From: a virus
Taxonomy: Duplodnaviria > Heunggongvirae > Uroviricota > Caudoviricetes
Virus record (IMG/VR): IMGVR_UViG_3300005535_000017
Span: 146,331 to 210,330 of that record
Direction: 5' to 3' (one strand)
Length of the DNA: 64,000 bases
Positions 61,327-64,000 of the stretch are shown here, piece after piece. The translations under genes and the position numbers were made by a program. Under the pieces are notes generated by a model. That model was not told the origin of the DNA. It did not search any database and worked only from the letters and a program-made list of their open reading frames with translations. The stretch's first letter is position 1. Every line of letters starts with the position of its first letter.

Positions 61327-62760
61327 ATGTCTGAGTTCGCTCCTGGGATCCCGGCGAAGCACGTTTCACACGATCTTCCGCACGTCGAGGAGCGAAAGAC
61401 GTGGGAATTGACTGTTCACGACCATCACGCTGAGAGACGCGGCCGCCACTTCGACCTTCGACTCGGAGATCCAGCTACCGGACACGCCCATTCGTGGGCG
61501 ATGCACGCTCAGTGGCCGAAGCCGGGCGAGAAGACCTGGGCCATCCAGCAGCCGACACACACGATGAAGTACATGGACTTCGTCGGGAAGATCGAGGATG
61601 GCTACGGCAAGGGCGACGTGAAGATGTTCGATCGAGCTAAGACAGAAATCACCAATGCTCGGCCCGGACACGTCAGCTTCAACGTCTACCGAGGCAGCGG
61701 GCCGGAAGAGTACTCCCTCCATCGGGTCGGAGACAAGCAGTGGATTCTGATGAATCGCACGCTGCGGCGGGAGCAGCATCCAGAGCTCCCAACCGACAAG
61801 CCCAAGTACAAGGAAACCAAGCTCTCTGACCCGAAGATCCACACCGACGACTACGTCTTCTCAGCCAAGATCGACGACGCTCACAACCTCTTCTACTTTC
61901 CCAAGGCGGGTGAGAAGATCCGGGTACTTTCGTACCGCGCCGCGAAGAGAAGCAACGGAGGACTGATTGAACACACGCACAAGGTCCCCGGAATCCTGGA
62001 GGGAGTACCTACGCCGGAAGGACTCGGAGGAACGATCCTTCGAGGAGGCTTGTACGCGATTTCACCAAGAAGTGGAATCGCTACGCCGGCAGCCCAACTC
62101 GCCGGCCTTCTCAACTCCGATGTCTGGAAGAGTCGTCAGAAGCAAGAAGAACACGGACAACTCAACTCCGTCCTCTACGACGTCGTCCAGTACAAAGGCC
62201 GCAAGATGGAGAGCGCTCCTTACTCGGAGAAGCTGAAAGTTCTTCGAGAGGTAGAGGCGAAATTGCCGGACTACTTCCACCTGCCTCGCATGGCCTTCAC
62301 CGAGACGGCTAAGAAAAAAATGGTGGAAGACATGAAGGAAGGGAAGATGCCGGAGACGAAGGAGGGCATCGTCGCCTGGCATCTTCACCAAGGAACACCA
62401 CCGTACAAGGCAAAGTTCTCGACGGACCACGATGTCTACATTCGCGGCTTCTTCCCTGGCGAGGGCAAGTACAAGGACCGTGGGGTGGGAGGCTTCTTCT
62501 ACTCCTACGAGCCTGATGGGCCGATCGTTGGCCGCGTCGGAACAGGGCTCAGTGATGCTCAGCGCTCTCACATGCACTCGAGCCCAGAGGTCTACATGGG
62601 AACAGTGGCGCGCGTGAAGGCGCAGGAGCGGTTCCCGTCTGGAGCTCTGAGAGCTCCCGCCTTCGACGCGTGGCACCTAGATAAAAACGATCCAGAGGCG
62701 CTCGCGTTGGTGAAGCACGCGTCTCTGGATCATGAGCTAGTCTTCTTGTGGGACGTCTAG
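61327..62760 (+). CDS. LigD-type 3'-phosphoesterase domain fused to ATP-dependent ligase-like domain
   Basis: PE domain HDHHAERRGRHFDLRLG...HSWAM...GHVSF; ligase motifs KIDDAH (I, variant), KEGIVAW (IV), PYKAKF (V). Confidence 0.65.
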   Translation: MSEFAPGIPAKHVSHDLPHVEERKTWELTVHDHHAERRGRHFDLRLGDPATGHAHSWAMHAQWPKPGEKTWAIQQPTHTMKYMDFVGKIEDGYGKGDVKMFDRAKTEITNARPGHVSFNVYRGSGPEEYSLHRVGDKQWILMNRTLRREQHPELPTDKPKYKETKLSDPKIHTDDYVFSAKIDDAHNLFYFPKAGEKIRVLSYRAAKRSNGGLIEHTHKVPGILEGVPTPEGLGGTILRGGLYAISPRSGIATPAAQLAGLLNSDVWKSRQKQEEHGQLNSVLYDVVQYKGRKMESAPYSEKLKVLREVEAKLPDYFHLPRMAFTETAKKKMVEDMKEGKMPETKEGIVAWHLHQGTPPYKAKFSTDHDVYIRGFFPGEGKYKDRGVGGFFYSYEPDGPIVGRVGTGLSDAQRSHMHSSPEVYMGTVARVKAQERFPSGALRAPAFDAWHLDKNDPEALALVKHASLDHELVFLWDV

Positions 62761-64000
62761 GTTCTGAACTTCTTGTCCGGCCCAGGTCCTGTCGAGATGA
62801 TGCCGATCGGCGTATTTAGGTGTTGCTTCATGATGTGCAGGAAGGCGTCGGTGTCTTTCGGGGCGCGCTCATAGATCGGAACGACCCTGGACAGTGCCTT
62901 TGCTAGGTACTCCTGCCCGGCATAGGTCGGATGCTTCTCGACGTGAATGTCGAGCGCTCGATGAGCTGGGCTGCCGAATTGGAACATGACCTCGTCTTCC
63001 TCTTCGTAGACAGAGTACCCAGTGCAGAGCCACATGAAATGATCGCGTTGGTCGATGTGAGTCATGGCGATCTCATCGACGCCGCCGAGGACCTCGAGAG
63101 CGTAGCGCGTCAATAAGACGTCCGGCGTTCCAATACGGAACTCTCGCTGCCACAATCCCATCCCATTGTGCTTGTCGAAGACGAGCTCCTTGATTTTGCC
63201 GTCCTCGATGCCGAAGATCTCATCTTGCGTCGGTAGCGGGCCGGCTCCATGGCGCGTCATGTATGAACGCATGACTCCGACCTTCCAGATGTCGCCGTCA
63301 TACCCGGCTGCGTCGAGTATCTGACGAGCTCCAGTGAAGGTTGCATCCGTCCAAGCAGTGTAGGGCTGGAAGCCGTAGTCTTGGTCGAGTAGCGCTCCCT
63401 GTGCGCCTTCGAAGACTAGATTCTTTCCTCGGAACATGCACGGCAGGCTATCGGCATCGACAGTTCTGAAGAGGCCCGCAAGATCGTGGAGCTGGTCCAC
63501 CATGTGCTCCACCCGATCGGCTGGGAAGGTGAACCAGCGAAGAGCGCGATGGGCGATGTCTGGAAGGGACACGTCCAGGACTTGTGTCTTGAACTCTTCA
63601 TACTTCCTGTCCTGTACGGACTTGAATTTGCGGAGAAGCGTTGTTCTATCTGAAAGATCACCGACGGCGATCGTATCGTTGTGTGAAGAGAGCGAGTCCT
63701 GCTTGGTCTCGCCGATCCCCATTCCACAGCTCCCGTGGCGCCAGTCGCCACGAAGAATCTCGCGAAGCTGGTTCGCGGCTTTATGGAAAGGCGTGACGAC
63801 GAGAGCGTTGCGATCGAATGCCACGAGGACATTCGCATTTTCGATGCCGAGCCGCTCGAGTTGCAAGAACTCGCTCAAGAAGGCAGACGGCTCGATGATA
63901 GTGTGACGAGACATGAAGGTGGGGACTCCTTCGAACGTCGCACTACCAAACTGCGAGAACGTGTGATGTCGGCCGTCCTGAGCATAGACATTGTGCGCCG
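62757..64000 (-). CDS. adenylosuccinate synthetase homologue (PurA or PurZ), 5' end beyond window
   Basis: FEGAQGALLDQDYGFQPYTAW, TRHGAGPLPTQ, PIGIISTGPGPD; frame stays open upstream of 63914 to the window end. Confidence 0.8.
   Translation of the reverse strand, partial: AHNVYAQDGRHHTFSQFGSATFEGVPTFMSRHTIIEPSAFLSEFLQLERLGIENANVLVAFDRNALVVTPFHKAANQLREILRGDWRHGSCGMGIGETKQDSLSSHNDTIAVGDLSDRTTLLRKFKSVQDRKYEEFKTQVLDVSLPDIAHRALRWFTFPADRVEHMVDQLHDLAGLFRTVDADSLPCMFRGKNLVFEGAQGALLDQDYGFQPYTAWTDATFTGARQILDAAGYDGDIWKVGVMRSYMTRHGAGPLPTQDEIFGIEDGKIKELVFDKHNGMGLWQREFRIGTPDVLLTRYALEVLGGVDEIAMTHIDQRDHFMWLCTGYSVYEEEDEVMFQFGSPAHRALDIHVEKHPTYAGQEYLAKALSRVVPIYERAPKDTDAFLHIMKQHLNTPIGIISTGPGPDKKFRT

Follow-up and report, generated by a model that had tools for sequence, protein, structure and literature searches.

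The window analyzed here is a 64,000-nucleotide stretch of a virus genome of the class Caudoviricetes (positions 146,331 to 210,330 of IMG/VR record IMGVR_UViG_3300005535_000017), and its far end is occupied, on the minus strand, by a gene related to adenylosuccinate synthetase (PurA), hereinafter the PurA-like gene. The open reading frame (ORF) comprises 413 sense codons and is open up to the window edge; the encoded protein matches the Pfam profile PF00709 (Adenylsucc_synt) with an E-value of 1.5e-44 along residues 2-408 (profile positions 37-413 of 416) and PHROG 1211 with an E-value of 4.7e-49. The gene is convergent with a gene for a LigD_N-type ligase, the two overlapping by 4 bases, and a ThyX gene (Pfam Thy1, E-value 2.6e-36) lies ~6 kb away. 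An initial annotation of this DNA had recognized the adenylosuccinate synthetase relationship from three quoted motifs, all of which are found in the protein (Table 1), and had correctly noted both the nearby thyX and the truncation of the gene. Indeed, because P0001 and the product of contig L171, two full-length relatives of 455 amino acids (aa), align with the window protein from their own residue 43, ~42 N-terminal residues, including the GDEGKG P-loop, appear to be encoded beyond base 64000. The same annotation had raised the possibility that the gene encodes PurZ, the enzyme that makes 2-aminoadenine (Z) for DNA modification, and had joined it with thyX in a nucleotide-metabolism module; neither suggestion survived the analysis. 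Judging from sequence and model comparisons, the PurA-like branch is distinct within the adenylosuccinate synthetase superfamily, being neither canonical PurA nor PurZ, and we favor, with moderate confidence, the view that it consists of neofunctionalized enzymes, GTP-dependent and purine-activating, with a changed amine substrate and/or a different nucleotide.

The PurA-like proteins score far below the cutoffs for canonical PurA. Against the PurA equivalog models NF002223 (cutoff 402 bits) and TIGR00184 (395.55 bits), the window fragment scores 118.7 and 101.8 bits, respectively, and the full-length relatives 167.5-206.9 and 148.8-195.5 bits. We took a census of residues in 120 family members, using the E. 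coli PurA numbering checked against the E. coli sequence. Retained in the family are G12, D13 (119/120), K16, H41 (120/120), Q224, R272, D333, S414, and G416; D13, K16, H41, Q224, D333, and S414 are kept in 116-120 of the 120 members, and H41, Q224, D333, and S414 are seen in the window itself. Among the positions that we take to be ligands of the IMP 5'-phosphate (N38, T129, T239, and, from the partner subunit, R143), three are replaced, with N38Q in 118 of the 120 members, T129C in 113, and R143 giving way to Asp, Glu, His, or Asn; at the T239 position, the family has Thr and the window Ala. All of the presumed L-aspartate contacts are changed, namely, V273H (120/120), T300W (113), T301Q (119), R303, which falls in a gap (120), and R305F (97), and further changes include T42N (117/120), P135E (120), and S240W (117). 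The segment HGSCGMGIGE stands in place of a PurA segment that presumably binds the IMP 5'-phosphate, and its H, G, C, and E vary little or not at all across 121 sequences. In the remodeled aspartate loop, HNGMGLWQREFRIGTPD, where the window reads LWQREFRIG, Thr300 is replaced by Trp, Thr301 by Gln, and Arg305 by Phe, and Arg303 is lost. R303 is mentioned in PMC8342488 and D13 in PMC12884076.

All three sequence signatures of the branch, HGSCGxG(I/V)GE, TRHGxGP, and WQxxFRxG, are present in the window protein, which scores 488 bits (E-value 1.1e-147) against the family hidden Markov model (HMM) and keeps every invariant column of the 121-sequence alignment that falls within the fragment. Phages, Chloroflexota, Actinomycetota, and Patescibacteria share the replacement residues, and because these (His, Cys, Trp, Gln, Glu) are themselves invariant, the changes suggest the formation of a new, specific pocket and not decay. 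An AlphaFold2 (AF2) model of P0001, which is 78% identical to the window protein, reaches a predicted local distance difference test (pLDDT) score of 94, and its best Foldseek matches in the PDB are the E. coli PurA structures 1CG3 and 1CG1, with a template modeling (TM) score of 0.77 and 25% identity. The likeness to canonical PurA (E. coli; PDB 1CG0, 1CG3, 1ADE) extends to the long-form fold, the length of ~450 aa, the GDEGKG P-loop with Asp13, and His41, Gln224, Arg272, Asp333, and the Ser414-x-Gly-Pro motif. In contrast to the PurA-like branch, canonical PurA passes the equivalog cutoffs and has its own aspartate loop, Val273, N38, T129, and R143, all of which are replaced in the branch.

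These similarities could also be explained by a divergent but functional adenylosuccinate synthetase, which would convert IMP, L-Asp, and GTP to adenylosuccinate and, as the product of an auxiliary metabolic gene, would raise the AMP/ATP supply, for instance, to supply NAD salvage or compensate for lost adenylate. Such an enzyme would account for the retention of the catalytic D13, K16, H41, and Q224 and of the guanine-binding D333 and S414, for the overall long-form fold, for the one invariant Arg that remains in the aspartate loop, and for the name 'adenylosuccinate synthase' that sources give to homologues. We consider this explanation unlikely, given that scores of 119-207 bits contrast with equivalog cutoffs of ~400, that the supposed L-aspartate contacts are near-invariantly replaced along with three of the four IMP-phosphate ligands, and that Val273, the Thr-rich aspartate loop, and Arg305 are all retained in the PurZ of phage phiVC8, another aspartate-using enzyme. 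The aligned PurZ0 keeps Val273 and Arg305 as well.

Under the PurZ explanation, the gene would encode an enzyme that converts dGMP and Asp to succino-2-amino-dAMP in a phage with a Z genome. The window gene does belong to the same superfamily, other nucleotide-related genes (ThyX, Nudix) are present in the phage, and PHROG 1211 and RefSeq label the relatives '2-aminooxy adenylosuccinate synthetase'. The known PurZ and PurZ0 (phiVC8, 6FM1; S-2L, 7ODX; Gordonia phage Archimedes, 7VF6) are, likewise, phage-encoded and often carry the same database label. However, PurZ and PurZ0 form a clade of short, archaeal-type enzymes of 340-380 aa, with two deletions compared to bacterial PurA (PMC8342488, PMC12884076), in which the catalytic Asp13 is replaced by Ser in 100% of the 147 phage sequences (PMC12884076). 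The relatives of the window protein, at 430-470 aa, are unlike this short architecture, all but one of the 120 members have Asp13 rather than Ser, and the nearest full-length homologues, P0001 and that in L171 (77-78% identical), read GLGFGDEGKGT with Asp13 in place.

Profile, pairwise, and structural comparisons point the same way. The NCBIfam PurZ model NF038379 has a curated cutoff of 300 bits, compared to which the full-length relatives score 44.1 and 46.6 bits, and no match to the window fragment was reported at E<=0.01. In BLASTP searches, the window protein matched E. coli PurA with an E-value of 9e-27, as opposed to 0.006 for phiVC8 PurZ and 2.9 for a PurZ0, and a PDB sequence search with the same query returned PurA chains only, with no PurZ chain at E<0.01. 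According to Foldseek, the P0001 model is more distant from PurZ (7ODX and 6FM1, TM score 0.55-0.57) and PurZ0 (7VF6, 0.53), at 14-19% identity, both of which ranked below all 31 long-form (bacterial and eukaryotic) PurA chains. The GTP-type base pocket (Asp333, Ser414) is kept. A tblastn search with phiVC8 PurZ matched 204 phage records, and the mycobacteriophage cluster that carries the PurA-like family, cluster C, was absent from the ten commonest organism names and from the matches listed.

In known Z-phages, purZ and the other Z-cluster genes are no more than a few kb apart: purZ is clustered with datZ, mazZ, and dpoZ, and the PurZ0 gene with dutZ and dmtZ (PMC8342488, PMC12884076), the former association involving MazZ/DUF550 and the latter also DUF5664. 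The search for such partners covered the 64-kb window and related loci. With phiVC8 and Arthrobacter phage Litotes as the references (queries: PurZ, DatZ, the neighboring small ORFs, DpoZ, the dUTPase-annotated gp51, taken as DmtZ-DutZ, and gp49), tblastn against the window and the related loci L001-L004 yielded a best E-value of 0.009; Pfam detected no HD, MazG, DUF550, dUTPase, or family-A polymerase (DNA_pol_A) domain among the 86 window ORFs; and the gene tables of the syntenic phage contigs L002 and L003 contained no DatZ, MazZ, DUF550, DpoZ, DutZ, or DmtZ. With Asp13 kept in the relatives, the PurZ model far under its cutoff, a fold nearer PurA, and no Z-cluster partners in the window or the related loci, the identification as PurZ is not supported, and the gene does not appear to make 2-aminoadenine for the phage DNA; we regard a PurZ-type enzyme as extremely improbable here. 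The initial annotation had named two signs that, together, would speak against PurZ, namely, canonical IMP-binding residues and missing DatZ/MazZ partners: the partners, indeed, were not found, whereas the IMP-binding residues are non-canonical.

This result removes a false lead on a Z genome for the window gene. PHROG 1211 and RefSeq attach '2-aminooxy adenylosuccinate synthetase' to a non-PurZ branch, and ~200 records of cluster C mycobacteriophages carry either this label or 'PurA-like'. The PHROG 1211/RefSeq label appears misleading and could cause false Z-genome calls; neither 'adenylosuccinate synthetase' nor '2-aminooxy adenylosuccinate synthetase' on a phage gene is evidence for a Z genome.

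The proposed module with thyX was rejected from the content of the intervening genes, which encode the LigD_N-type ligase, a Major Vault Protein (MVP)-like protein, a SpoU methylase, and a phosphoesterase-like protein. The conserved partners of the PurA-like gene would lie on its other side, past the window end; they encode a von Willebrand factor A (vWA) domain protein and a J-domain kinase-like protein. The three genes form an operon on one strand, in the order J-domain/kinase-like, vWA, PurA-like, with the PurA-like gene last. In L002 and L003, a ~340-aa protein without a Pfam match is encoded directly upstream of the PurA-like gene and is itself preceded by a DnaJ-domain protein, and this pair also comes before the PurA-like gene in one Chloroflexi and one Patescibacteria genome. 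We conducted a census of the partners with HMMs made from seed loci by scanning 160 loci found with the family alignment; the counts refer to the 139 loci with >=2.5 kb upstream, 66 bacterial and 73 viral. The vWA gene is present in 65 of the 66 bacterial loci and in all 73 viral ones (138/139), the kinase-fold gene in 124 of the 139 loci, and both partners in 63/66 bacterial and 61/73 viral loci. In nearly all loci, the partners are co-stranded with the PurA-like gene and tightly packed. Canonical PurA lacks this near-obligatory linkage, for which a housekeeping adenylosuccinate synthetase offers no rationale.

The vWA partner is a protein of ~330-340 aa with a MIDAS-like DVTGSMG motif. A sequence-profile search of this family against the PDB produced nothing significant, and the fold was recognized only from an AF2 model (pLDDT 90.5), which Foldseek matched to integrin I-domains and the NorD vWA domain with a probability of 1.0. 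Both termini are distinctive, with an invariant N-terminal Met-Gly...Trp and, in a low-confidence, predicted flexible tail, a penultimate Arg that is likewise invariant and precedes Leu or Ile. The family has at least 7814 members, all labeled 'hypothetical' or 'VWA domain-containing'. The profile of the kinase-like partner matches CK2 and PAK kinases (E-values of about 1e-8 to 1e-9) as well as the J domain, which is usually N-terminal and carries the HPD motif. With HGA instead of HRD in the catalytic loop and (D/G)W in place of DFG, this protein resembles a pseudokinase or else an atypical enzyme. Among the PADLOC models, there is none for the PurA-like or the vWA protein, and the kinase-like protein matches only the generic kinase ones.

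The company of a kinase-like protein without the catalytic Asp, that is, of an enzyme-derived fold that already seems non-catalytic, brings up another explanation, namely, that the PurA-like protein is itself catalytically inert or merely binds GTP and would be a subunit with a regulatory or scaffolding role, e.g., a nucleotide sensor, in a vWA/J-domain pseudokinase complex. The heavily remodeled substrate pockets and the NrtR regulator that adjoins many loci (see below) would be compatible with such a role. We find it quite improbable, given that D13 (119/120), H41 (120/120), K16, Q224, and R272 are kept over a wide phylogenetic distance, that two alleles of the gene evolved under strong purifying selection (dN/dS 0.12), and that the invariance of the replacement residues suggests a new specific pocket.

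The same triad is found in cluster C mycobacteriophages, which, like the phage studied here, are large and tRNA-rich (Pinkcreek, a C1-subcluster member, has 29 tRNAs). In Cane17, gp250 is annotated as 'kinase', gp251 is the vWA protein, and gp253, the 'PurA-like adenylosuccinate synthetase', belongs to the same branch as the window protein (33-35% identity; 436 bits with the family HMM). The sequences are only distantly related, and Cane17 differs in that its vWA and PurA-like genes are separated by a small additional one, gp252. The vWA protein gp251 (L004, 3786-5603) is split by an intein-like insert of ~250 aa between the conserved segments KGY and (L/I)FIGDE, a sign that the site matters for function. 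No function for Cane17 gp253 or for the window branch is reported in the literature. A lead is provided by the TerY-P triads, reportedly described by Anantharaman, Iyer and Aravind in 2012, which consist of a vWA protein, a Ser/Thr kinase, and a PP2C phosphatase. There, too, the operon combines a small vWA protein with one of the eukaryotic-type kinase fold, but the third member is a phosphatase rather than a PurA-like protein, and the kinase-like protein of the present triad lacks the catalytic Asp and contains a J domain.

The family is widespread. In the genomes of bacterial species, the search with the family alignment gave at least 594 hits, including Chloroflexota, Myxococcota, Actinomycetota (Streptomyces, Rhodococcus), Patescibacteria, and Planctomycetota, and matched 185 IMG/VR contigs, mostly of 100-500 kb; an exhaustive HMMER scan at E<=1e-30 identified 1631 clusters (50% identity). 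Streptomyces, Myxococcus, and Rhodococcus, where the family occurs, have a canonical purA, so that the PurA-like protein is a paralogue there, which counts against its being a divergent adenylosuccinate synthetase. The same is true of adenylosuccinate lyase, which does not recur near the PurA-like loci.

The neighborhoods of the triad point elsewhere. An NrtR-type regulator (Nudix plus NrtR winged helix) adjoins 38 of the 160 loci; it runs in the same direction in Actinomycetota and divergently in Saccharibacteria. Several jumbo-phage contigs (L092-L102) have the triad interleaved with the NrtR-type regulator, NAMPT, and a Nudix-containing protein, the order in L097 (1895-8263) being NrtR, vWA, Nudix, NAMPT, PurA-like, kinase-like; NADAR domains also recur near triad loci. 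In a Pfam census of 133 immediate viral neighbors, no family was found in more than 3 loci, and the single-linkage clustering of neighborhood ORFs, a noisy procedure given the shadow ORFs in high-GC DNA, identified the NrtR-type regulator as the sole recurrent extra gene. Together, these neighbors suggest a link to NAD/ADP-ribose metabolism, the only recurrent functional hint, as opposed to DNA base modification. The placement of some loci among NAD-salvage genes, which consume ATP, would also suit a supplier of adenylate such as the divergent adenylosuccinate synthetase considered above. The window itself encodes a stand-alone NUDIX hydrolase (E-value 2.2e-13), which gives a weak partial match (E-value 1.4e-4) to the HMM of the triad-flanking NrtR-type regulators.

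Returning to the favored interpretation, a neofunctionalized GTP-dependent enzyme, the PurA-like protein would still bind GTP and would transfer its gamma-phosphate to the oxo group of a purine-type nucleotide, as in PurA. Some amine different from free L-aspartate would then attack the activated carbon, and/or the nucleotide would bear something other than a simple 5'-phosphate. The protein may act in a complex with the vWA and J-domain partners, of which the J domain could recruit the host Hsp70/DnaK, and, more speculatively, the termini of the vWA protein might be a substrate or docking element. One could go further and envisage the triad as an undescribed, widespread nucleotide-dependent system in which the PurA-derived enzyme joins a GTP-activated purine nucleotide to a non-aspartate amine. 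Candidates for the amine are a group on the vWA protein, either its invariant N-terminal glycine or its Arg-Leu tail, and a metabolite related to NAD/ADP-ribose; many bacteria would control the system through NrtR and ADP-ribose, and phages might swap its alleles as a host-takeover or counter-defence cassette. In this complete form, the scenario is doubtful.

Several observations weigh against the neofunctionalized enzyme. The case for it is built from sequence and model comparison, and literature searches on the branch, the triad, or characterized PurA-like phage proteins returned only PurZ papers and genome announcements. The roles of T300, T301, R303, R305, and V273 as L-aspartate contacts and those of N38, T129, and R143 as IMP 5'-phosphate ligands are those of the E. 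coli enzyme, as given in its structural and mutagenesis literature. The Arg that aligns with R306 is invariant in the remodeled loop and could still bind a carboxylate, and the alignment of the loop contains a gap, so that the protein may still use aspartate. The Asp13 codon of the window gene lies beyond base 64000 and the residue is taken from the relatives, as is the triad for this phage, given that the window stops before the partner genes; the nearest full-length allele is only 77% identical to that of the window. The proposed use of the vWA termini is a speculation drawn from their conservation, and the NAD-related neighbors are present in a minority of the loci.

Whichever chemistry is involved, the analysis exposes a large, uncharacterized family of PurA paralogues with rebuilt aspartate and IMP-phosphate pockets and a near-obligatory linkage to vWA and J-domain kinase-like proteins. 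The family hints at unexplored chemistry or regulation, the gene and its triad are more interesting than an ordinary purA, and the triad proteins are small and soluble-looking.

For the phage in question, the best evidence on the triad comes from L171, the metagenome contig Ga0207694_10000261. This contig is 98.5-100% identical to the window between 52763 and 62760, apart from three 200-base bins of which the lowest is at 94%, and it carries the kinase-like gene with the J domain (7584-8654) and the vWA gene (8669-9688), followed by the PurA-like gene. The PurA-like allele of the window, in contrast, is only 77% identical to that of L171. Comparison of these alleles gave a dS of 1.3 and a dN/dS of 0.12, indicative of purifying selection. 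Because these values are found beside near-identical flanks, the phage of the window apparently acquired a different, functional allele by recombination, with the breakpoint at the gene boundary. Fast local evolution was considered as the cause of the divergence from L171 and ruled out by the same values and flanks. The far end of that segment lies outside the window. A megablast search of phages with the last 4 kb of the window gave no match, and an exact-sequence lookup of the adjacent ligase matched no contig. An HMM search detected no triad partner genes elsewhere in the window. A 300-aa protein with a C-terminal J domain (YKTLAAKYHPDSSG) is encoded there, a second J-domain protein unrelated to the kinase-like partner of the triad.

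Table 1. Features of the PurA-like gene, its boundary, and other genes of the window (coordinates of the 64,000-nucleotide stretch)
Feature	Position	Strand	Basis
PurA-like coding sequence, 3' 413 codons plus TAG stop (62757-62759)	62757-63998	-	ORF translation, Pfam, PHROG
AHNV, aligned with A39-G40-H41-T42; catalytic His41 kept, Gly40 to Ala, Thr42 to Asn	63987-63998	-	E. coli alignment
HGSCGMGIGE in place of PurA IGTTGRGIGP; Thr128 to Ser, Thr129 to Cys, Arg131 to Met, Pro135 to Glu	63708-63737	-	
FEGAQGALLD, purine-contacting Gln224 motif kept	63384-63413	-	alignment
TRHGAGPLPT, Val273 to His, invariant in family	63228-63257	-	alignment
HNGMGLWQREFRIGTPD, remodeled L-aspartate loop, one residue shorter than PurA NEFGATTGRRRRTGWLD	63120-63170	-	alignment
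THID for PurA TKLD; guanine-specifying Asp333 kept, Lys331 to His	63051-63062	-	alignment
ISTGPGPD, Ser414-x-Gly-Pro guanine-binding motif kept	62775-62798	-	alignment
Mosaic boundary; below ~62760 near-identical to L171, above it (PurA-like gene) 69-82% identity	62757-62800		
LigD_N 3'-phosphoesterase plus ligase	61327-62760	+	
MVP-like protein, 931 aa	58054-60849	-	
SpoU-type RNA methylase and phosphoesterase-like protein	56819-57953	-	
ThyX	55861-56817	-	Pfam Thy1
rIIA-like (693 aa) and rIIB-like (379 aa) proteins	51513-54746	-	synteny
PARP protein, 474 aa	49789-51213	-	
43 tRNA genes	38217-47560	+	
NUDIX hydrolase	34126-34758	-	
J-domain protein, 300 aa	22291-23193	-	

The rest of the window contains an array of tRNA genes, all on one strand and covering almost all amino acids, which indicates a large, tRNA-rich phage. 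Because of this array, the SpoU-type RNA methylase, the phosphoesterase-like protein, the ligase with the LigD_N 3'-phosphoesterase domain, and the HAD_SAK_2 ('Swiss Army Knife' RNA repair) and PTH2 domains encoded elsewhere in the window may be read as an RNA/tRNA repair gene set. The 693-aa and 379-aa proteins correspond, by synteny, to the HATPase_c_3 (rIIA-like) and Phage_T4_rIIB genes of L002 and L003; the window copies have no direct Pfam match. The 931-aa protein contains the Major Vault Protein shoulder (E-value 1.4e-23) and vault-repeat domains, and the 474-aa protein combines WGR, PARP regulatory, and PARP catalytic domains. In eukaryotes, the vault shoulder binds NAD/ADP-ribose (bioRxiv 10.64898/2026.05.01.722283), and the pairing of the MVP-like and PARP proteins in the window recalls, by analogy, that of MVP and PARP4 in the eukaryotic vault. 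Both L001 and L003 have conserved the MVP-like gene, and L002 has a PARP gene.

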